From IMG/VR virus record IMGVR_UViG_3300005805_000412, positions 1 to 26,310 of that record: a DNA stretch of 26,310 bases, one strand, 5' to 3'. This DNA comes from a virus (taxonomy: Duplodnaviria; Caudoviricetes). A program made the position numbers and the translations under genes. Positions 1,973-26,111 of this stretch are shown piece after piece. The notes below the pieces were generated by a model that had not been told where the DNA came from, did no database searches, and saw only the letters and a program-made list of their open reading frames with translations. Each line of letters starts with the position of its first letter. Position 1 is the stretch's first letter.

Positions 1973-3901
1973 ATGTCAAATACAGCAACCAATTATATTA
2001 ATTTGATACGTAAAGATTATCCTGTGAGGGGTAAGGATAATGACTCTCAAGGGTTTAGGGATAACTTTACCAATATTAGTAAAGCATTAGAAACTATTAA
2101 TAGTGATGTGAGCACTCTTGGTAATATTGCTGTATTATCAAATACTACCGCTACATTTTTTGGTAACAATATTGAAGAAGCAAACTTTAAAAATTGCTCA
2201 ACTGAATTATGGGATAACGGCACATTAAGCGGTAATATCACACTAGATTACACACTAGGCAGTTATCAAAAGTTAACTGTGGAAGCAGGTGATAACTTTG
2301 TTACGATTCAAAACTGGCCAGACGAAGGTTCTTCAGGCAACATGAATTTAGCTATCTATCCTGTAGCTGAAGAAGGTGTGTATACAGTAAGATTTATTGG
2401 GGATTCTATAACTTCATTAGGTCCATCAAAAAATCCCTACCGATTAGTAAGTGGCGCTAACCTATTTCAAATCTACAGTGAGTACGCGGCTGGAGCAGAT
2501 AATCCTACAATTCACACAAGATTATTGAATGAACTTGCACAATTAACTACCTCAACTACGCAAGTTAGAGCAGATGAATTAATCTTAAACAACAAAAAAT
2601 TACCCATTGATACTGGGCAGGATGTAACTATAAGAGTAAGCACTGCGTCAGGTTCGACCTCGGCTACGGTAATTCAATCAAAAGTAGCAGGCAAATCGGT
2701 CTCCGCTAATATTGGTTTAGTAGCTAACAAAGTTGTACACACTGTAGTAGACATTGACCCTACAGGGTTTGTAAGCACGACCACTGCCAACAAGATCCAA
2801 TTAAATTCTGTTTCTGGCATTTTATTGGGTGCTACATTTGGTTTACTTAATAACACAGCAAATTTTAAAGTAACCGACATTTCGACCACAGCTAGCGTAA
2901 TAACCTGTACTCCTGTGTTTAATGTTGGTATTGGCACAGGCGAAGTAATTTTTAGAAATCCCATGTACGGCGATACTTTGGATGGCATACAATTAGGCAG
3001 CAAAACAGCATTCCCTACTCTGTTAACCTTATTAGACGGATCAGAATATATTGCTGCAAATACTTCAACTGGTAGGGTTGGCGTATTCAGAGGATCACTG
3101 TATGCTAGCGCCAATACCTTAGAAATCACTTTCCAGGATTACGGCAGCGGGATTAAAAATACATTTACTGCCAGTACCATGGTGTCTACAACTGCGTCTA
3201 ACGACAGTGTAGACTTAGCTAATACTCAATTCGTCCATGACATATTACCAGCTGGTTCAATTATCATGTGGTATGGCGATATATCTAATATACCAACTGG
3301 TTGGAAATTGTGCGACGGTTCTACATACACAGTTCTAGGAACTACCGCTACTGTTAAGTCACCAGATTTAAGAAATAGATTTGTAATTGGAGCTGATACC
3401 GATCTAGTTGTTAACGGATTAGATCCCATCAACAGTCGAGTAGCTTCATCCAGTATTCTAGGACAGAATACTACCACAGGTGGTACAGCGGTTGCGGCCA
3501 TTGTTACACATAATCACGTTAGCACCGGTACTTTTGTCAGCCCTCCACATACACACGATATTGAAGATGAAGGTCATACTCATGTATTGACCGACAGAGC
3601 TGGCGTACTAGCAGGTGATGGTGTTGCTAGAGCAGATATCGATAGTGATGATAGAATTTGCCTGTTTGGTAGTTACGATCTTGTTAAAACTAGTAAATCA
3701 GCCACAACTGGTATATTGATTGAAAATTCTACAACAATCGTCAACGCCAATTTACAGGTGTTACATACAGGTACAACTTATCAATCTAGTTTTGGTACAA
3801 CGTTGTCCGGACAACCTGTGCTTGAAGGAAATAATGTTGCCAATATTCCGCCGTTCTATGCGCTGGCTTATATAATTAAGATTACCGGTTATCGTGCATA
3901 A
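1973..3901 (+). CDS. Tail fibre/baseplate protein with phage tail-collar domain
   Basis: LPAGSIIMWYG...PTGWKLCDGS...PDLRNRFVIGA collar motif, HxH motifs (THNH, HTHD, GHTH) and C-terminal NIPPFYALAYIIK. Thr/Ser/Gly-rich. Confidence 0.8.
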   Translation: MSNTATNYINLIRKDYPVRGKDNDSQGFRDNFTNISKALETINSDVSTLGNIAVLSNTTATFFGNNIEEANFKNCSTELWDNGTLSGNITLDYTLGSYQKLTVEAGDNFVTIQNWPDEGSSGNMNLAIYPVAEEGVYTVRFIGDSITSLGPSKNPYRLVSGANLFQIYSEYAAGADNPTIHTRLLNELAQLTTSTTQVRADELILNNKKLPIDTGQDVTIRVSTASGSTSATVIQSKVAGKSVSANIGLVANKVVHTVVDIDPTGFVSTTTANKIQLNSVSGILLGATFGLLNNTANFKVTDISTTASVITCTPVFNVGIGTGEVIFRNPMYGDTLDGIQLGSKTAFPTLLTLLDGSEYIAANTSTGRVGVFRGSLYASANTLEITFQDYGSGIKNTFTASTMVSTTASNDSVDLANTQFVHDILPAGSIIMWYGDISNIPTGWKLCDGSTYTVLGTTATVKSPDLRNRFVIGADTDLVVNGLDPINSRVASSSILGQNTTTGGTAVAAIVTHNHVSTGTFVSPPHTHDIEDEGHTHVLTDRAGVLAGDGVARADIDSDDRICLFGSYDLVKTSKSATTGILIENSTTIVNANLQVLHTGTTYQSSFGTTLSGQPVLEGNNVANIPPFYALAYIIKITGYRA

Positions 3902-4143
3902 TGTATCATCCTTTAGTATCAGATCCAAGAAAATTTAAAGACCAAGAACTAGACGATAAAATACAAGAGCTTAGTAAAAAATATCATCTAGCAGCAAGAA
4001 GTGGTCAGGGCGGAATTTGCACTCAAATTCTTGCAGCTTTGGATATGTTTAAGGCAGAAGCGGAACGCCGCAGAATAGAAAGCATAGATAATCTTATAAA
4101 GAAACAAAATAAAGACCTAGACGATCTAATTAATGTTGACTAA
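3901..4143 (+). CDS. Hypothetical protein (helical, 80 aa)
   Basis: ORF overlapping the upstream stop (TAATG), tightly packed. Confidence 0.7.
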   Translation: MYHPLVSDPRKFKDQELDDKIQELSKKYHLAARSGQGGICTQILAALDMFKAEAERRRIESIDNLIKKQNKDLDDLINVD

Positions 4144-4693
4144 TAAACCAGAACACTTTGTATGGACTACCGAAATAGTTTGTACTTTCATATCCGATAA
4201 CATTCTCATCCCCAATATCTATAGTCTAAGTATAGGCATGGAGCCTAATACATCAAACACTGATGATATTGATTTGGGGTTTAAAAAATTGAAACATTTT
4301 GTTTCAGACTATCTCCAAAATTCAATTTTTGTTTTTAAAGACTCAGATTTAGTAAAACCACTATCAAAACTAGATACTAATTTAGTTCTATTTCCGGATG
4401 AACCATTTGATTATTTGGTGGCTGCTATTCTATATAGAAAATTTTCTGTAATCACTGACAAATACTTTAGTATTGGATTTATTACCATTGACAGTTCTAT
4501 TGGTGACCATGTACAATACACACTTACCGTGGACTGTGAGGTAGAGTCTGAACTCAATGGTGATTACTGGTGGAACAAAGACAATGTTAACACTGGAACG
4601 GATGATCACACCAGTTGGGACGATCTTAATCTCAAGGAAACTCCACGCTTTTCACCCAAAGTGGTAAAGGGCGGCAAAAGTGAAAACAAATGA
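4133..4693 (+). CDS. Hypothetical protein
   Basis: 186-aa ORF overlapping both neighbours; no motif recognised with confidence. Confidence 0.7.
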   Translation: MLTNKPEHFVWTTEIVCTFISDNILIPNIYSLSIGMEPNTSNTDDIDLGFKKLKHFVSDYLQNSIFVFKDSDLVKPLSKLDTNLVLFPDEPFDYLVAAILYRKFSVITDKYFSIGFITIDSSIGDHVQYTLTVDCEVESELNGDYWWNKDNVNTGTDDHTSWDDLNLKETPRFSPKVVKGGKSENK

Positions 4694-5198
4694 ATTTGGA
4701 CAAGTTGAAGTAACAGAGCAAGAAGCATTCACGGCACTATTACAGAAAAAAATTCCAGATCTTGCTAATGTATTTTTGGAAGATCCTATTGTAATAGATC
4801 AGTATAACACTGCCAGAAACACAAATGCTGATCGCATTCCGCCGCTGCTGGCGCTAGAAGAATTGAAAATTTCTCTAGAAGACTTTGATAAAGTGAATCA
4901 AGAAAAATGGTTCATGCCCCAAGACTATTGCCCAAACCTAATAGAATGGCTGTTTGCTCAGTGCTCAAACGATGAACAGGCTATTAGAGTAAGCGAAGAA
5001 CTGGAATTGTTCATTCAATACAAGATGACGGATGTATTGAGGTATGTTAAATACCTCGTCGATACAATGCGTAAAGAAGGCATAGTATGGGGCGTAGGCA
5101 GAGGCAGTAGTGTAGCTTCCTACGTATTATATTTGATCGGTGTTCATAAAATTGACAGCATCAAATATAATCTTGACATACGTGAATTCTTAAAATAG
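4680..5198 (+). CDS. DNA polymerase III alpha (DnaE)-like fragment (GRGS region only)
   Basis: RVSEELELF...YLVDTMRKEGIVWGVGRGSSVASYVLYLIGVHKIDSIKYNLDIREFL parallels DnaE RL..EL..I....G.GRGS.AGSLV.Y.LGIT.IDP....L.FERFL. It lacks the PHP domain and the PDIDxD catalytic motif. Confidence 0.8.
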   Translation: MKTNEFGQVEVTEQEAFTALLQKKIPDLANVFLEDPIVIDQYNTARNTNADRIPPLLALEELKISLEDFDKVNQEKWFMPQDYCPNLIEWLFAQCSNDEQAIRVSEELELFIQYKMTDVLRYVKYLVDTMRKEGIVWGVGRGSSVASYVLYLIGVHKIDSIKYNLDIREFLK

Positions 5199-5207
5199 GA
5201 GATAAAC

Positions 5208-5495
5208 ATGCCAAAATATAGATCAATGCAGGGCAAGGAAGTTGACATGGATAAGTTAATGCAACAAAACGAACTTATGCCTGCCATCGGTAATATGAAG
5301 GTTAATGCTCGCGGAGACGAATTAGGTCCAGGCGGTCAAATTATAAGAAAGCGCGAGGACGTAATGGCCGCATATTATGAAAATAATCCCAAGAGCAGAA
5401 TTAACCGATCACCTCCACCGAAACCCTCTGTAAAAGAAGAAAAAACAACTCAAGTTAAATCAAAAAAACCACAGGTAAGCGACGATGAAAGTTAA
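5208..5495 (+). CDS. Hypothetical protein
   Basis: Strong SD (AGGAG) upstream of ATG 5208; basic/Pro-rich C-terminus. Confidence 0.75.
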   Translation: MPKYRSMQGKEVDMDKLMQQNELMPAIGNMKVNARGDELGPGGQIIRKREDVMAAYYENNPKSRINRSPPPKPSVKEEKTTQVKSKKPQVSDDES

Positions 5496-5826
5496 AGGAA
5501 CAATCAGACCTCTCAAAGATAAAGTCTTTGTAAGCGATATGAATTTTGATGCTCAAATTACTGCCGGCGGGCTTTATATCCCCAGTTCAGACGGTAAGGC
5601 TGAAGGTATTACACCACGTTGGGGGAAAGTATACGCTATAGGTCCAGAACAAACTGAAGTTAAAATAGGTGACTGGGTTATGATTGAGCACGGTCGATGG
5701 ACTAGAGGCGTAGATGTTGCGGTAACAGAAGATACACATTTTACCGTTAGAATGATCGACGCTGATGCAATCATGCTGGTTTCAGAAGAAAAACCGCAAG
5801 AAGAAGTGTATCGACGAGCAGACTAA
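5485..5826 (+). CDS. groES: Co-chaperonin GroES-like protein
   Basis: IRPLKDKVFV...TAGGLYIP...GKVYAIGP...VKIGDWV matches GroES (IRPL.DRV; T.GGI.LP mobile loop; G.V.AVG.G; VKVGD.V). Confidence 0.85.
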   Translation: MKVKGTIRPLKDKVFVSDMNFDAQITAGGLYIPSSDGKAEGITPRWGKVYAIGPEQTEVKIGDWVMIEHGRWTRGVDVAVTEDTHFTVRMIDADAIMLVSEEKPQEEVYRRAD

Positions 5827-6206: not shown

Positions 6207-6373
6207 ACAAAGTTTTGTTCGAAAGAGTCTGCGAACTAGAAGCCAAATTAGAACTTGAAATACAGAAACGTTGGCAGGCCGAACAGCAAGTGCTAAATGT
6301 AGAAAAAGAACTACATAGACTAAAATATCTAATGTCAAAACAACAGGATTCAGATGAAACAACTATGGGTTGA
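6203..6373 (+). CDS. Small coiled-coil protein, 56 aa (not in ORF track)
   Basis: MNKVLFERVCELEAKLELEIQKRWQAEQQVLNVEKELHRLKYLMSKQQDSDETTMG*. ATGA coupling to the upstream gene; heptad-like pattern. Confidence 0.6.
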   Translation: MNKVLFERVCELEAKLELEIQKRWQAEQQVLNVEKELHRLKYLMSKQQDSDETTMG

Positions 6374-7286
6374 GAAATATCGTCCAAAAAGCATAGACGA
6401 ATACGTGTTCGTAGATGATGCGCAGCGTCGTCAAGTCGCTAATTGGATTAAAGAAGGCAGTATTCCGCATCTACTATTCAGCGGTAGTGCCGGTATCGGC
6501 AAAACTACTCTTGCTAAAGTACTATTGAACGAACTAGGCATCGAAGAATATGATGTATTAGAAATCAATGCTAGTCGCGAGAACGATGTCAACACTGTTC
6601 GAGACAAGATTGTAAACTTTGTGCAGATGATTCCGTTTGGTCCTTTCAAAGTCGTGCTACTTGACGAGGCCGATTATCTTACTCCCAACGCACAGGCAAT
6701 ACTGCGTGGTGTTATGGAGACTTACAGTAACCACAGTAGATTTATCCTAACCTGTAATTATGAAAACAAGATTATTCCTGCACTTCACAGTCGCTGTCAA
6801 GGGTTTCATATTACTAAGACCGATCAAACAGAGTTTACCGCAAGGGTAGCAACTATTCTAGTATCAGAAAACGTAGACTTTGAACTAGACACATTAGACA
6901 CTTATGTAAAAATTGCCTACCCAGATCTACGCAAATGTATTAATCTTTTGCAACAAAATGTTTCTCAAGATAACAAATTAGTTTCCCCCACTGCGGGAGA
7001 TAATGCAGGCAATGATTATAAAATTGAAATGGTAGATTTATTTAAAAAGGGTAGAATTGCAGAAGCAAGAAAACTACTATGTAGTAAAGCTCGTCCAGAA
7101 GAAATTGAAGATATCTATCGCTGGATGTATGACAATTTAGATCTATTTGGGGATGATGAAGAATCTAAAGATACAGCTTTATTGATTATTAAGCAGGGCT
7201 TAGTTGATCATACACTAATTGCTGACCCGGAAATTAATTTAGCAGCAGTCCTAGTTAAATTGGCAAGGATAAAATTAAAAGATTGA
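6354..7286 (+). CDS. Clamp loader AAA+ subunit (RFC small subunit / T4 gp44-like)
   Basis: WVEKYRP, Walker A GSAGIGKT, INAS, Walker B LLDEAD, SRC arginine-finger motif, DLR sensor 2. Confidence 0.93.
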   Translation: MKQLWVEKYRPKSIDEYVFVDDAQRRQVANWIKEGSIPHLLFSGSAGIGKTTLAKVLLNELGIEEYDVLEINASRENDVNTVRDKIVNFVQMIPFGPFKVVLLDEADYLTPNAQAILRGVMETYSNHSRFILTCNYENKIIPALHSRCQGFHITKTDQTEFTARVATILVSENVDFELDTLDTYVKIAYPDLRKCINLLQQNVSQDNKLVSPTAGDNAGNDYKIEMVDLFKKGRIAEARKLLCSKARPEEIEDIYRWMYDNLDLFGDDEESKDTALLIIKQGLVDHTLIADPEINLAAVLVKLARIKLKD

Positions 7287-7341: not shown

Positions 7342-8085
7342 TTATACAATCTCCTTATAAATTGAAAGTATTTCTTTCACCACCGGATGTCTTTCCACAT
7401 CTAATGGTGTAAACTTTGCCATCCCGATTAATTTAACGTCACCTCCTTCATTATATAATCTGCAAAAATCTAATAGGCCATTTTCTCTAGGTCGATCTGC
7501 TTGTCCCAAATCACCGGTAACGACCATTCTACTGTTTTCACCCAATCGAGTTAATAACATTTTCATTTGAGAAGCGGTTGCATTCTGCATTTCATCTGCA
7601 ATTACAAATGCATTTTTGAATGTGCGTCCTCTCATGTATGCCAGCGGGCTTATTTCTACTATTCCGTATTCCAACATAGTTTTTAGTTCTTTAGGATGAT
7701 AGTATTCTTCTAGAACATCAAATATAGGCTTTGTCCACGGCTCCATTTTTTGATTAAGTGTACCTGGCAAAAATCCATGTTCCTCATCCACACTTACAGC
7801 AGGACGGGTAACAATAATTTTGCTTATAGCTCCTTCTTTGAGTTGTTTGATTGCTGTCTGCACTGCAAGCATGGTTTTGCCGGTACCTGCAGGACCAATC
7901 GCAAAAATTATAGTTTTGCGATTATTTTTTAGCAATTCTATGTAGTGTTCTTGAGATACACTTCTGGGTATTAATTCTACTTGATTTTTCTTTTTTAAGT
8001 AGGGCTTGATCTGTATTAGGTTATTTTCAACTGTTTCAAAACGCGGATCGCGTTCTTCTTTAAATTTTCTTCTGCTTTTTGGCAT
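7342..8085 (-). CDS. phoH: PhoH-family ATPase
   Basis: GPAGTGKT, VTRP, GFLPG, LAYMRGRTF, DEMQN, GD..QAD, VERHP motifs. Start probably 8085 (GGGGGA SD-like sequence upstream) rather than 8097. Confidence 0.93.
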   Translation of the reverse strand: MPKSRRKFKEERDPRFETVENNLIQIKPYLKKKNQVELIPRSVSQEHYIELLKNNRKTIIFAIGPAGTGKTMLAVQTAIKQLKEGAISKIIVTRPAVSVDEEHGFLPGTLNQKMEPWTKPIFDVLEEYYHPKELKTMLEYGIVEISPLAYMRGRTFKNAFVIADEMQNATASQMKMLLTRLGENSRMVVTGDLGQADRPRENGLLDFCRLYNEGGDVKLIGMAKFTPLDVERHPVVKEILSIYKEIV

Positions 8086-8123
8086 CGAATCCCCCATATG
8101 TGAAAATGGTTGACCTGCACAGA

Positions 8124-20397: not shown

Positions 20398-23067
20398 ATG
20401 AGTTACGTAGACGCGAATTGGGATCGCGATAAAGACATTGTTCGAGTCGTCGAACGAGATTCAAAAAAAGGCAGACTTTATCAAACATACCCTGCCAGAT
20501 ATTTTTTTTACTACCCAGATCCAAAAGGCAAATACAGATCAATTTACGGTGAATCTTTAAGCAAGGTCAATGCTAAAAGTCACAAAGAATTTGTTAAAGA
20601 ACAGCGCATACACGGTCATCATAGGCTGTTTGAAAGCGACATTAATACTGTATTCCGTTGTTTAGAAGAAAATTATCTCGGTAAAGAATCTCCTAAACTT
20701 AATGTAGCATTTTTCGATATCGAAGTAGACTTTGACCCAGAGCGAGGTTACGCAAGTCCCGAAGATGCCTTTATGCCTATTACTGCTATTGCGGTACATC
20801 TGCAATGGATGGACACGCTAGTATGTCTTGCTGTACCTCCAAAGACACTTACTATAGAGCAGGCAACTGAGCAGGTAAAAGATTTCCCTAATACTATTCT
20901 TTTTGAAACTGAATATGAAATGCTAGATGCGTTCTTAAATCTCATTGAAGATGCAGATGTTCTAAGCGGTTGGAACTCAGAAGGATATGATATACCCTAC
21001 ACAGTCAATCGTGTTACAAAGGTGTTAAGCAAAGAAGATACCCGCAGATTTTGCTTGTGGGATGAGCTTCCTAAGAAAAGAGAATACGAAAAATACGGTA
21101 AAACTGCGGTTACCTATGACCTTATTGGCAGAGTGCATTTAGACAGTCTCGAACTTTATAGAAAATATACATACGAAGAACGCCATACATACAGACTAGA
21201 TGCAATTGGTGAAATGGAAGTAGGTGAGAGCAAAACAGTTTACGAAGGAACATTGGATCAACTCTATAACAACGACTTCCGTAAGTTTATTGAATATAAC
21301 AGACAAGACTGTGCTCTATTAAACAAACTAGATCGTAAACTAAAGTTTATTGACCTAGCAAACACCATTGCACATGAAAACACTGTTTTATTGTCAACAA
21401 CTATGGGAGCAGTGGCGGTTACAGAACAGGCCATCGTGAACGAAGCACATCATAGAGGACTTATTGTTCCTAGTAGACCAAAAAGAGACGAGGAAGAAAA
21501 TAATCAGGCTGCGGGTGCCTATGTAGCATATCCCAAGAAAGGATTACATGATTGGATTGGATCTATGGACATTAACAGTCTTTATCCGTCTGTTATTCGT
21601 GCATTGAACATGGGACCAGAAACCATTGTAGGACAGCTACGCCAGGATTATACCAAAGCAGAAATTGAAAATAAAATCAATAAAGGATCTAGTTTTGCTG
21701 GAGCCTGGGAAGGAAAGTTTGGCACTAACGAATATGAATTTGTAATGGCGCAAGATCGTACTAACGATATTGTTGTAGATTGGGAAAACGGCAGCACGGA
21801 TATAATGAGCGGCGCACAAATCTACGAAATGATTTTCAACAGTGGTAAGCCGTGGATGTTGAGTGCTAACGGCACTATTTTTACTTCTGAATCAGAAGGT
21901 GTAATTCCTGGACTACTGAAGCGTTGGTACGCAGAACGTAAAGAAATGCAGGCCAAACTTAAAGAAGCAATCAAAGCAGAAAACAAAATTGAAGAAGAAT
22001 ACTGGGATAAACGTCAATTAGTTAAGAAAATTAACTTGAACAGTCTGTACGGCGCTATTCTAAATGCGGGCTGCAGATTTTTTGATAACCGCATTGGACA
22101 AAGCACAACTCTTACTGGTAGACAAATTGCCAAACATATGGCCAGTAAAATTAACGAAGTTATCACAGGCGAATATGATCACGTAGGAAAAGCCATTATA
22201 TACGGCGATACTGATAGTGCTTATTTTAGTGCCTACAATAGTCTCAAGAATGAAATCGCCAAGGGCGAAATTGCTTGGGACAAAGACACTGTTATCAAGC
22301 TCTACGACACCGTGGCAAATTCAGTAAATGCTACATTTGCAGAATTCATGCAGGATGCTTTTCATTGTCCAAAAAGTCGCGGGGAAGTAATTAAGGCAGG
22401 ACGAGAAATTGTTGCTGTTAAGGGACTATTCATTACCAAAAAACGCTATGCTGTTCTTTATTTTGATAAAGAAGGCAAGCGTTTAGATATGGACGGCAAG
22501 CCAGGAAAGATCAAGGCTATGGGTTTGGATCTCAAACGCAGCGATACTCCGGAATTCATGCAAAAGTTTCTAGAAGAAGTGCTATCTAAGGTGCTTAACG
22601 GTGCTGAAGAAAAAGAAATTCTAGAACGTATTAGTGAATTCCGTACTGAATTTAAGGCTAGACCTGGTTGGGAAAAAGGATCCCCAAAACGAGCAAACAA
22701 CATCACCGACTACGAAGAAAAAGAACGCAAAGCAGGAAAAGCCAATATGCCCGGACATGTTCGCGCCAGCATCAATTGGAATACACTGCGAAGAATGAAC
22801 GGTGACAAATATAGCATGCAGATTGTAGATGGTATGAAGGTGATCGTATGTAAAGTAAAAGACAATCCCTTAGGATATACCAGTGTTGCCTATCCAACTG
22901 ACGAACTTAGATTACCTAAATGGTTTCAAGAGCTGCCATTTGATCATTCAGAAATGGAAACTACAATCATCAACAACAAATTAGAAAATCTCATTGGGGT
23001 ATTGGAATGGGATTTGGATAGTACAACCCAGACCAATACATTCAATAGTTTATTCAGCTTTGATTGA
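20398..23067 (+). CDS. Family B DNA polymerase (T4 gp43-like) with 3'-5' exonuclease
   Basis: ExoI FDIEVD, ExoII WNSEGYDIPY, ExoIII YNRQD; polymerase motifs DINSLYPS, KINLNSLYG, YGDTDS, KKRY. Confidence 0.96.
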   Translation: MSYVDANWDRDKDIVRVVERDSKKGRLYQTYPARYFFYYPDPKGKYRSIYGESLSKVNAKSHKEFVKEQRIHGHHRLFESDINTVFRCLEENYLGKESPKLNVAFFDIEVDFDPERGYASPEDAFMPITAIAVHLQWMDTLVCLAVPPKTLTIEQATEQVKDFPNTILFETEYEMLDAFLNLIEDADVLSGWNSEGYDIPYTVNRVTKVLSKEDTRRFCLWDELPKKREYEKYGKTAVTYDLIGRVHLDSLELYRKYTYEERHTYRLDAIGEMEVGESKTVYEGTLDQLYNNDFRKFIEYNRQDCALLNKLDRKLKFIDLANTIAHENTVLLSTTMGAVAVTEQAIVNEAHHRGLIVPSRPKRDEEENNQAAGAYVAYPKKGLHDWIGSMDINSLYPSVIRALNMGPETIVGQLRQDYTKAEIENKINKGSSFAGAWEGKFGTNEYEFVMAQDRTNDIVVDWENGSTDIMSGAQIYEMIFNSGKPWMLSANGTIFTSESEGVIPGLLKRWYAERKEMQAKLKEAIKAENKIEEEYWDKRQLVKKINLNSLYGAILNAGCRFFDNRIGQSTTLTGRQIAKHMASKINEVITGEYDHVGKAIIYGDTDSAYFSAYNSLKNEIAKGEIAWDKDTVIKLYDTVANSVNATFAEFMQDAFHCPKSRGEVIKAGREIVAVKGLFITKKRYAVLYFDKEGKRLDMDGKPGKIKAMGLDLKRSDTPEFMQKFLEEVLSKVLNGAEEKEILERISEFRTEFKARPGWEKGSPKRANNITDYEEKERKAGKANMPGHVRASINWNTLRRMNGDKYSMQIVDGMKVIVCKVKDNPLGYTSVAYPTDELRLPKWFQELPFDHSEMETTIINNKLENLIGVLEWDLDSTTQTNTFNSLFSFD

Positions 23068-23075
23068 AAATTTTA

Positions 23076-23104
23076 TTGACAGGAAACAAAGATCTAAATA
23101 TAAT
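23076..23104 (+). promoter_or_regulatory. Consensus sigma70 promoter overlapping a TAAATA motif
   Basis: TTGACA (23076-23081), 17-nt spacer, TATAAT (23099-23104); TAAATA at 23095-23100. Confidence 0.8.
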
Positions 23105-23123
23105 CAACTTAAAGGATAATAAT

Positions 23124-23858
23124 ATGAAAGACATTCTCTCCGACATTGTGTCACACACAAACAAACTAGGATTTCTTAACATTGTTAAGATTACTGGCAG
23201 CAAAGACAAAACACAGATTGACAGCATGGCTGACGATCGCAGTGTAATCATGTATGCAGAAACAACTGAGCCGCAGTCAGCAATGACTGGTGTATTTGGC
23301 ATGCCGCAGTTGGAAAAACTGCGTTATCTACTAGACGGCGAAGAGTATCAGGAAGACGCGGTTATTGAAGTAGTGGTTGCTGAACGCAACGGCGAAAAAG
23401 TTCCAGTTGGACTACACTTTGAGAACAAGGACGGTGATTTTAAGAACGACTATCGCTTTATGAACCAGGAAATCATCAACGAAAAACTTAAAACTGTTAA
23501 GTTTCGTGGCGCCAAGTGGGACGTAGTTGTTCAACCTACAGTAAGTTCTATTCAGCGATTTCAGTTTCAGGCAGGAGCCAACACTGAGCATACAACATTT
23601 TTGGCTAAGACTGACGGTGACAAGTTAAAGTTTACCTTTGGTGATGCTGCTACACATGGTGGTGAGTTTATTTTTGCTACAGGTGTAACCGGAAGACTGA
23701 ACAAGGGTTGGACATGGCCAGTGCTTCCTGTTCTCAGCATTCTTAGAATAGCAGACAACAACAATACCACAATTAGCTTTTCCAACGATGGCGCAATGCA
23801 GATTGAGCTAGACAGCGGATTGGCAACATACAAATATATTATTCCGGCACAAGCATAA
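23124..23858 (+). CDS. Probable DNA polymerase sliding clamp (gp45/PCNA-like); start ATG 23124
   Basis: 244 aa, directly after PolB, with a clamp loader in the window. Helix/strand alternation and C-terminal YKYIIPA strand resemble clamps. SD AAGGA precedes 23124. Confidence 0.55.
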   Translation: MKDILSDIVSHTNKLGFLNIVKITGSKDKTQIDSMADDRSVIMYAETTEPQSAMTGVFGMPQLEKLRYLLDGEEYQEDAVIEVVVAERNGEKVPVGLHFENKDGDFKNDYRFMNQEIINEKLKTVKFRGAKWDVVVQPTVSSIQRFQFQAGANTEHTTFLAKTDGDKLKFTFGDAATHGGEFIFATGVTGRLNKGWTWPVLPVLSILRIADNNNTTISFSNDGAMQIELDSGLATYKYIIPAQA

Positions 23859-25402
23859 TGAAACAGCAAGTTAACCTAACTCCCTTACAAAAAGACTACG
23901 CTGTATATCTGCCAGCAATAAGCAGTTTCTACAGCACCTATGTCGCTAAACAGCGATTGGAAGAGTTTGTTCCTCAAGATCGTATTCCTGTAGGATTTGA
24001 CCGCGGTATTGAAGGTATGAACTTCCTCAATCCAGAGGAAGGCTACTTCAACTACAAATATGCGCTTTATTCTGCAGGACACGCACAGTTGGATTTAAAC
24101 AAGAGTTTTGTACAAGAGTCTATGATTCAGCAGCGTGATCGCAAGAACACAATGATTCTAGGCGACTCAGGTGGATATCAAATTGGTAAGGGTGTTCTAA
24201 AATTTGATTGGTTAAACTTTGAGGGCAAAGATGCCAACAAAGTACGCCAACAGATTTTAGAGTGGTTAGAGTTAACTGCTGATTGGTCAATGATGCTAGA
24301 CGTTCCTACCTGGGCCTGTGACCATATTCACAGTCCCAAGACTGGACTAAAGACATTTGAAGACTGTTTGGAAAAGACACGTTTCAATAACAAATATTTT
24401 TTAGAAAACCGCTTAGGTCAAACCAAATTCCTTAATGTGCTGCAGGGCAGCGATTGGAATACTGCAGAACAGTGGTACAACGGCGTTAAGGAATTTAGTG
24501 ACAATAAGATATGGGGAGATAAGGCTGCAGAAGGTTGGGCGTTTGGTGGTGCAAACATGTGCAAGATGCACATCACACTCAAGCGTCTAATGACCATGCG
24601 CGATGAAGGAATGTTGGAAGGAAAGGATTGGATTCACTTTCTAGGAACGGCTCAGTTAGATTGGAGTTGCTTCCTAACCAGCATTCAGCGTCAGATTAGA
24701 GAGCATATCAATCCAAATTTAACTATTAGTTTTGACTGTGCTTCACCGTTTATTGCTACCGCTCACGGTTTGGTTTATACAAACGCACAGCACAGCAACA
24801 AGCGTTGGTCAGTGATCATGGACAAGGCTCCAGATAATAAAGCACTAGCCAAGAGCGATATTCCGTTCCCGTTTGAAAGCGAAATTGGTCGTAGACTTAC
24901 AATGGGCGACATCTGCTGGTATGCTCCTGGTATGCTCAACAAGATTGGCAAGGAAGGCAAAACTTCTTGGGACAGTTTCAGCTATGCACTAATGATGGGT
25001 CATAATGTCTACTGTCATATTGTTGCTGTACAACGAGCCAATCAACTGATGGACATCGAATGTGCTAAATCGCAGCCCGATTGGAGACTGTGGAATAAGA
25101 AAAAAGATAAGGACATGAGCGACGAATACAGCGAATGGGTTCCTAGAAACATTCTATACTTTGATCGTTTTGTAAAAGAACTGTTTCAAACTAAGAATAA
25201 AAAAGCCGCATTTGCAATGATCGATGCTGCTAGTCCTTTCCTTAAAGATTTAGAAGGATCTAGACTACGCGGTGGTGCACTTGAAAATGAGTTCAATAAT
25301 TTATTCAGCGTGGAAGAAATAACTAAACCGGAACAGGTAGATATGACCAATCCGGATGATGATAAACTAAGAGAATTAGAAGAGGCAGTACAAACTGTCT
25401 AA
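23858..25402 (+). CDS. dpdA: TGT-fold transglycosylase, DpdA-like (7-deazaguanine insertion into DNA)
   Basis: DSGGYQ, MMLDVP, NVLQG, GWAFGG, IHFLG and SFDC motifs in TGT order. No CxCxxC zinc site of tRNA TGT. QueD-like gene nearby. Confidence 0.75.
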   Translation: MKQQVNLTPLQKDYAVYLPAISSFYSTYVAKQRLEEFVPQDRIPVGFDRGIEGMNFLNPEEGYFNYKYALYSAGHAQLDLNKSFVQESMIQQRDRKNTMILGDSGGYQIGKGVLKFDWLNFEGKDANKVRQQILEWLELTADWSMMLDVPTWACDHIHSPKTGLKTFEDCLEKTRFNNKYFLENRLGQTKFLNVLQGSDWNTAEQWYNGVKEFSDNKIWGDKAAEGWAFGGANMCKMHITLKRLMTMRDEGMLEGKDWIHFLGTAQLDWSCFLTSIQRQIREHINPNLTISFDCASPFIATAHGLVYTNAQHSNKRWSVIMDKAPDNKALAKSDIPFPFESEIGRRLTMGDICWYAPGMLNKIGKEGKTSWDSFSYALMMGHNVYCHIVAVQRANQLMDIECAKSQPDWRLWNKKKDKDMSDEYSEWVPRNILYFDRFVKELFQTKNKKAAFAMIDAASPFLKDLEGSRLRGGALENEFNNLFSVEEITKPEQVDMTNPDDDKLRELEEAVQTV

Positions 25403-25422: not shown

Positions 25423-25578
25423 ATGATCAATACAAAAGTTAAAAAGAATACAACAAACGAAGTCCCATCAGACGAAAAGCTTTATAAACTTTTGGAGTCG
25501 ATGGATTGGAAGCTTTGGGAAATTATGAATATGCTCAAAGACAATCTTCCCAACACAGAGAAAAAGGCTAAGAAATAA
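25423..25578 (+). CDS. Small hypothetical protein, 51 aa (not in ORF track)
   Basis: MINTKVKKNTTNEVPSDEKLYKLLESMDWKLWEIMNMLKDNLPNTEKKAKK*. SD AGGAG at 25412, TAAATA at 25400-25405, TAATG overlap with the next gene. Confidence 0.7.
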   Translation: MINTKVKKNTTNEVPSDEKLYKLLESMDWKLWEIMNMLKDNLPNTEKKAKK

Positions 25579-26111
25579 TGAAACGCGATTACACTGAAGG
25601 TGTAAGGAGCGATGTTCAATTTTTTATTGGCAAGGAAGTAGAGCATACTCCTGCCTTTGGGATGAAGACTCTGTTTATTGCAGGTTTACACACTACAGAT
25701 TCTATAGAAAAAGTTCTAGCAGATTCTTTTATGAGTATAGGAGGTCCTGTTGAGCATCTTTTCTTTGGAGCAAATCATTCTTATAATCCAGCAAGAAACG
25801 GTGATTGGCAACCTTGGGAGGACATGGTAAAACATTTCCTTAAAAAAGGTTATTTGTGTAGTCTAGATATTCCCCTTAGTGCGGTCGAACAGTTTCATGA
25901 CGGCGCACTTTGCGAATATGATAACTTTATTCCGCAAATTCGTGTAGCTATACCTTATGTAAAATTATGGAACTATAATACCATGATTAAAATAGATGAT
26001 AAGGATTTTAGATCTACCAATCCCGGAGTATGGAGTCATAGTCTGCACAATCTAATGGATAGGGATTGCTTTACAGATTGGGCAAAATATCGCAACGATG
26101 TTGCCCTATAA
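25578..26111 (+). CDS. Hypothetical protein within the deazaguanine cluster
   Basis: 177-aa ORF between the DpdA-like and QueD-like genes; function not recognised. Confidence 0.75.
   Translation: MKRDYTEGVRSDVQFFIGKEVEHTPAFGMKTLFIAGLHTTDSIEKVLADSFMSIGGPVEHLFFGANHSYNPARNGDWQPWEDMVKHFLKKGYLCSLDIPLSAVEQFHDGALCEYDNFIPQIRVAIPYVKLWNYNTMIKIDDKDFRSTNPGVWSHSLHNLMDRDCFTDWAKYRNDVAL

Follow-up and report, generated by a model that had tools for sequence, protein, structure and literature searches.

Of the described systems, the minimal Pol III alpha that group 2.2 jumbo phages encode in two pieces comes closest; it was described from sequence by Iyer et al. (2021, Viruses 13:63; PMC7824862). It consists of a stand-alone N-terminal piece that binds NTP and a distant gene for a C-terminal piece that binds Mg2+ and template, in genomes with a family B polymerase and no other Pol III domains, and the accessible text of that paper offers neither a map of residues nor a model of the complex, and reports no experiment. 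The arrangement has been known since 2021, and each half has a PHROG family of its own. A literature search in which subscription journals were thinly covered yielded no experimental follow-up on split Pol III alpha; the available parts of the PA5oct omics paper contain no passage on 'DNA polymerase', and the passages of PMC12926913 on split, phage, Iyer and thumb make no mention of a split phage Pol III alpha.

Canonical DnaE carries the PHP domain, palm, thumb, fingers and catalytic aspartates in one chain, which in bacteria (E. coli, M. tuberculosis, Taq) is about 1160 residues long. A dnaE that is divided over two separate genes is found in cyanobacteria, with their split-intein DnaE. For the E. 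coli enzyme, the accessible part of PMC4374717 describes R362, G363 and S364 as nucleotide-binding residues and R390, R709 and R710 as contacts of dATP, and that of PMC8485763 describes D401, D403, D555 and the steric-gate residue H760. In B. subtilis, according to the available text of PMC3664799 and PMC5627055, DnaE extends RNA primers ahead of PolC.

The window analysed here is the whole stretch of 26,310 nucleotides of the IMG/VR record IMGVR_UViG_3300005805_000412 (Caudoviricetes). Its 172-aa ORF with DnaE similarity (Table 1) is almost certainly a subunit of a split minimal Pol III alpha, and it shows no difference of kind from the system of Iyer et al. (2021): the stand-alone N piece, the absence of other Pol III domains (by a search for PHP) and the family B polymerase are shared, and in relatives the distant C gene is as well. 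The best GenBank matches include Atu_ph07, a group 2.2 phage in the accessible text of Iyer et al., and the downstream gene order, which takes in a GroES-like gene, the clamp loader and virion genes, is also shared with that type, as read from a 26-kb fragment that is rated 7% complete. With bacterial DnaE the phage pair has in common the palm fold and the R362-G363-S364 motif, and in the partner D401, D403, D555 and H760, but it amounts to about 365 residues in two chains, has no PHP domain, carries Glu at the R390 position and is without the thumb region, the R709/R710 region and everything past about residue 781. It also differs from the cyanobacterial split-intein DnaE, in that the N chain stops at EFLK, the C chain starts at the catalytic motif and intein sequence is absent. 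No intein family matched at the N/C junction, and since there is no intein at either end the phage chains would stay separate.

Table 1 Features of the window around the split Pol III alpha gene and its replication context
Feature	Position	Strand	Remarks
Split Pol III alpha N-terminal subunit (PHROG 11127), almost certain	4680..5198	+	GTG start; 172 aa; ends ...IREFLK*
Phage-specific arm, residues 1-74	4680..4901	+	Outside DnaE alignment in fold search; predicted to wrap round partner
DnaE palm helices, residues 75-172 (E. coli 277-393)	4902..5195	+	R141-G142-S143; E169 at R390 position
AGGAGA Shine-Dalgarno of next gene	5198..5203	+	Overlaps stop codon of 4680-5198; next ATG at 5208
80-aa helical ORF, conserved upstream neighbour	3901..4143	+	77/79 loci; weak PHROG 15348 match; no named family in atlas
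186-aa ORF, variable gene	4133..4693	+	14-nt overlap with N-subunit start; its family makes up 19/81 upstream ORFs
Downstream pair: 95-aa PHROG 14844 protein and GroES-like protein	5208..5826	+	Conserved
RFC-type clamp-loader AAA+ subunit	6354..7286	+	Annotated clamp loader in Atu_ph07 and GAP32
Complete family B DNA polymerase (PolB), presumed main replicase	20398..23067	+	889 aa; PHROG 262 at E 9e-200; Pfam exonuclease and PolB

The downstream neighbourhood is conserved: among loci with room for the gene in question, the 95-aa gene follows in 77/77, the GroES-like gene in 75/75 and the clamp-loader gene in 47/53, and PA5oct, Atu_ph07, GAP32 and Phosso carry N homologues followed by the same genes in the same order. 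The closest cultured homologues are about 35–38% identical to the window's N subunit over its full length. The overlapping upstream ORF gave no Pfam, PHROG or NCBIfam match; a weak atlas lead (0.84) points to 6-pyruvoyl-tetrahydropterin synthase-like proteins, and on a single contig a protein of this type is fused ahead of an N subunit (P0243). Elsewhere the window encodes, at 168–1967, a tail-fibre-like protein that has collagen-like GFTGS repeats and ends in an intramolecular chaperone domain, a minus-strand ORF called PhoH-like for its synteny (7342–8097), and, between 5485 and 17233, host-like genes for protein quality control and stress (GroES-like, DnaJ, peptide deformylase, Clp ATPase, ferritin/Dps-like). 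Right after PolB comes a 264-aa PHROG 12062 protein (23064–23858), by its position a sliding-clamp candidate, and then a 514-aa ORF (23858–25402) without Pfam, PHROG or NCBIfam match, which together with a following 177-aa ORF (25578–26111) possibly forms a base-modification module. Motifs of the 514-aa ORF recall what we take to be a tRNA-guanine transglycosylase-like fold.

Several lines of evidence place the 172-aa ORF in family C. Residues 92–171 match positions 15–94 of the 260 in Pfam PF07733 (DNA_pol3_alpha; E 6e-13), with 49.4 bits against a cut-off of 23.9, and PHROG 11127, a stand-alone family of 171 positions, matches at E 1e-39. The NCBIfam models give 19–39 bits against cut-offs of 434–1806, Pfam finds no PHP domain, and the ORF does not have the one-chain composition of a canonical DnaE. 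Residues 103–171 pair with E. coli DnaE 324–392 over equal length on both sides, an alignment that by itself is weak (E 0.7); because of this equal length the chain ends about nine residues short of E. coli D401, and the same offset sets R141-G142-S143 on R362-G363-S364. In an AlphaFold model based on 89 sequences (pLDDT 89), residues 75–172 superpose on E. coli DnaE 277–393 (Z 9.6, rmsd 2.6 Å, 97 residues aligned). The seven top rows of the fold search with this model were family C polymerases (Z 7.5–11.9, with the first unrelated row at Z 3.4), and residues 1–74 did not align to DnaE. Foldseek gave nothing at E ≤ 0.001, yet family C polymerases filled all of its top 16 rows, and the A1 profile had no match at E ≤ 0.01 among PDB sequences.

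The initial annotation, which had placed a DnaE GRGS match in the C-terminal 75 or so residues, was right about the match and too narrow about its extent, since the DnaE-like part is longer in the model. It had also stated that the ORF ends just before the catalytic aspartates, that it has no PHP domain, that the next gene has a strong Shine-Dalgarno sequence of its own and is unrelated, and that a complete PolB is present, all of which holds. Past the stop codon no continuation of DnaE was found in three frames, and the motif D-[IVCF]-D-[ILVMF]-D is absent from all six frames of the window.

Lacking a PHP domain and catalytic residues, so short an ORF might be the remnant of a decayed dnaE, the product of a recent truncation, or an assembly error. 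This explanation is extremely improbable, and decay or truncation is ruled out by the conserved end point and by dN/dS values below 1. The stop codon lies 33–39 residues past the first G of GRGS in all of 102 related loci, some of which were fetched twice, and exactly 33 residues past it in 65; the end point is common to cultured phages, and it recurred in 120/120 matches of a protein search restricted to 94–301 aa. At least 8000 homologue clusters have a similar length, again in a length-limited search. From 72 distinct N genes 2556 pairs were formed, of which 527 were usable and none reached a dN/dS of 1, which points to purifying selection; eight listed pairs at 85% identity or more gave 0.07–0.26. 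Distant pairs push up the overall median, which stands at 0.38, and dS between the window's own gene and even the nearest fetched loci is saturated. The initial annotation had argued against decay from clean boundaries and upstream overlap; the overlapping upstream gene is no fixed partner (Table 1). The DnaE similarity proposed from the letters alone held in the profile search, and the alternative of relatives with a full-length dnaE found no support at any of the 102 loci, where the copies end likewise. A search among longer proteins returned five matches from 421 candidates, in themselves weak evidence, namely four single-contig fusions and one distant DnaE of 1251 aa (E 2e-4); a fusion of N with C was not among these five. 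In three of the fusions (P0241, P0242, P0244) the N subunit is joined to part of a ribonucleotide reductase, to a piece resembling a homing endonuclease or to a piece of a transporter; these three are probably assembly chimeras or read-through calls.

The preferred reading, a subunit of a split polymerase, calls for a partner with the catalytic aspartates. The initial annotation had suggested that it is encoded elsewhere, as an ORF starting near PDIDID; such an ORF was not found in the 26-kb window (0 matches) and was found in relatives. Because of its absence from this fragment we can only infer that the window's phage carries the back piece outside it. Full-length DnaE profile phrog_405 independently finds a second ORF in 4/5 relatives, at places that coincide with a D-x-D-x-D pattern; this 15-base pattern has about the same number of matches as its reversed control, and counts as evidence only at places shared with profile matches. 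The partner ORFs of the relatives have 191–216 aa, start at an (M)(P)DIDID motif and belong to PHROG 11778 (about 192 aa), and in 76 of 77 the chain starts 1–5 residues ahead of the first Asp. PF07733 did not find the partner in relatives; a second match in GAP32 (E 0.008, two stops) spans unrelated ORFs and was dropped. PF17657 gave sub-threshold matches in 4/5 records, one of which (GAP32 201372) is off target.

The two halves occur together. Among 28 records that were chosen for holding either half, 12 hold both, 10 only N (22–46% complete) and 6 only C (30–79% complete), and N, C and PolB are all present in the 6/6 records that are complete or at least 90% complete. All seven complete or near-complete relatives, a 141-kb Alishewanella phage included, have N, C and PolB, with the halves 11–224 kb apart. 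Of ten IMG/VR records at 50% completeness or more, eight have both halves and two have C without N; in one of the latter (G014) the end of the contig is 18 kb away from PolB, at about the place where N would be expected, and the other (G020) is also without PolB. GenBank phage records number 92 for N (E ≤ 1e-10) and 96 for C (E ≤ 1e-3), and the genus tallies, which are not matched lists, nearly coincide (N/C: Escherichia 33/34, Pseudomonas 11/11, Klebsiella 10/11, Erwinia 8/8, Salmonella 8/8). The PHP profile PF02811 detected 14/14 controls and matched in none of five complete or near-complete relatives. In the Alishewanella phage (OQ508956.1, not a jumbo phage) the halves, annotated as hypothetical, lie at 67570–68181 and 79020–79532, 11 kb apart, and PolB is in two pieces; in PA5oct the PolB match is also in two pieces (216595–218661 and 220937–221803, about 2.3 kb apart).

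The C piece can be traced along DnaE. Its profile maps to E. coli DnaE 399–420, 597–641 and 752–767 with weak, collinear scores, and to M. tuberculosis DnaE 567–663, KxD motif included, also with a weak score. The C model (pLDDT 91) aligns 182 residues across E. coli 401–781 (Z 7.8, rmsd 3.8 Å; best row Z 9.4), and Foldseek finds Taq Pol III with it at E 7e-4. Since N ends at about residue 393 and C starts at the equivalent of M399, the split removes only about E. coli residues 393–398. Of the 381 residues that the C piece spans, about 200 have been lost, among them the R709/R710 stretch and presumably the thumb region. Residues D2, D4, D6, K62, D64 and H167 of C, equivalent to E. coli D401, D403, D405, K553, D555 and the steric-gate H760 (the K553/D555 pairing being deduced through the M. 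tuberculosis alignment), are invariant in 187/187 sequences, the Y764 equivalent is kept in 186/187, and R141-G142-S143 is invariant in 190/190 N sequences; all conservation counts lean on close environmental relatives, partly found by query-derived patterns, and on four cultured phages.

Complex prediction points to a heterodimer. For the cognate N and C of one relative (G002), of which the N subunit is 53% identical to the window's protein, the score was 0.90 in three runs against 0.00 for the best of three controls, and the score mark is reached by 116/157 solved pairs and 2/215 mismatched pairs. The runs agree in at least 98% of contacts, with a partner pLDDT of 84. As two parts of one divided gene can score well through their resemblance to solved DnaE structures, the score speaks of likeness and not of binding. 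In the model N residues 136–138 lie against C residues 5–7, with the GRGS strand beside the aspartates, and the interface on N includes residues 1–31 and 65–78, largely beyond the DnaE-aligned part; in the prediction these contacts would be less readily explained by solved DnaE. The two chains are predicted to abut over the gap of about six residues, and GRGS on the N chain would meet D401, D403 and D555 on the C chain in one active site.

The initial annotation had offered as its other reading a repurposed module that modulates the host replisome, which would make the 172-aa protein a catalytically dead factor acting alone. The lack of a catalytic aspartate, the phage-specific arm of 74 residues and the distance of the N gene from the other half would fit, but a half with intact aspartates co-occurs and begins where N ends, the arm is predicted to touch that half, and homologues, in which the nucleotide-binding motif is invariant, come from phages that infect alpha- and gammaproteobacteria. 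We regard the modulator as very unlikely and have given it up in favour of the split family C subunit, for which the partner ORF in relatives, the co-occurrence and the predicted binding all speak.

Very probably the two chains form an active nucleotidyl-transferring heterodimer. The position of R390 is acidic in 190/190 N sequences (Glu in 187, Asp in 3) in place of the canonical Arg, and R709/R710 are deleted, so that ordinary polymerase activity is not assured. New invariant lysines appear, K134 and K164, the latter in place of N757. The same heterodimer might be read as an enzyme with changed chemistry, either a nucleotidyltransferase that needs no template or an enzyme that uses the Pol III core to prime DNA synthesis de novo, and the loss of about 200 of 381 residues and the new lysines fit such a change. 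On the other hand the steric-gate His and Tyr equivalents are kept, the relatives already encode a DnaG-type primase, and K134 and K164 may simply substitute for the lost arginines. A changed chemistry seems unlikely to us, and we would put just as little trust in the related proposal that the heterodimer of about 365 residues is a dedicated priming-stage enzyme, making de novo DNA primers or untemplated additions; if true, this would mean a Pol alpha-like step inside a T4-type replisome.

For the templated heterodimer, the role that we favour is the extension of primase-made primers, after which PolB would take over; we hold this specific role to have about an even chance of being correct. 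With no PHP domain and with the thumb region and most of the fingers lost, the pair would be non-processive and without proofreading, adding few deoxynucleotides per binding event. The role is favoured because of gene context, universal retention and the analogy with B. subtilis, where likewise a family C enzyme extends primase primers before a second replicase, the difference being that there a full-length DnaE hands over to PolC, whereas in the phage the proposed acceptor is PolB. The C gene lies 0.9–1.5 kb from a DnaG-type primase gene, followed by DnaB, in 7/7 neighbourhoods (five IMG/VR records, PA5oct and GAP32). This proximity is one of gene order only, and the same cluster includes UvsX and a helicase. 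The primase was found by PHROG scans; profile PF08275 missed it in 2/5 records and was sub-threshold in three. T4-type PolB extends RNA primers without a helper, for which reason a hand-off enzyme is not obviously needed.

An accessory polymerase for repair or recombination (gap filling, lesion bypass, extension of invaded 3' ends), formed by the same heterodimer, is to be weighed as well, and we consider it rather unlikely, though not negligible. UvsX and a DNA helicase lie upstream within the C-gene cluster wherever they were scanned for or annotated, a DnaQ-like exonuclease is part of that cluster in GAP32, a stripped, non-proofreading core would suit short-patch synthesis, and repair is one of the possibilities listed in the accessible text of Iyer et al. 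(PMC7824862). A core function nevertheless fits better with retention in 7/7 complete relatives, the reduced 141-kb genome included, and in the 7/7 neighbourhoods no identified replication gene lies closer than those for primase and DnaB. In the loci read, a C2H2 zinc-finger-like protein of about 230 aa (PHROG 11058; L127:576–1271) precedes the C gene and a convergent gene for about 124 aa (PHROG 11637) follows it; both products are candidates for accessory subunits.

Beyond the description of Iyer et al. (2021), the present analysis adds the invariant catalytic aspartates and steric gate, the replacement of R390 by Glu and the apparent deletion of the thumb and of R709/R710. The residue map, together with cognate N and C pairs in cultured phages (PA5oct gp196 and gp264; GAP32_323 and GAP32_282), makes a direct test possible. 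An active pair would reveal how small a part of Pol III alpha suffices for catalysis, would provide a small two-chain polymerase for study, and would account for the retention of two unrelated polymerases by these phages.
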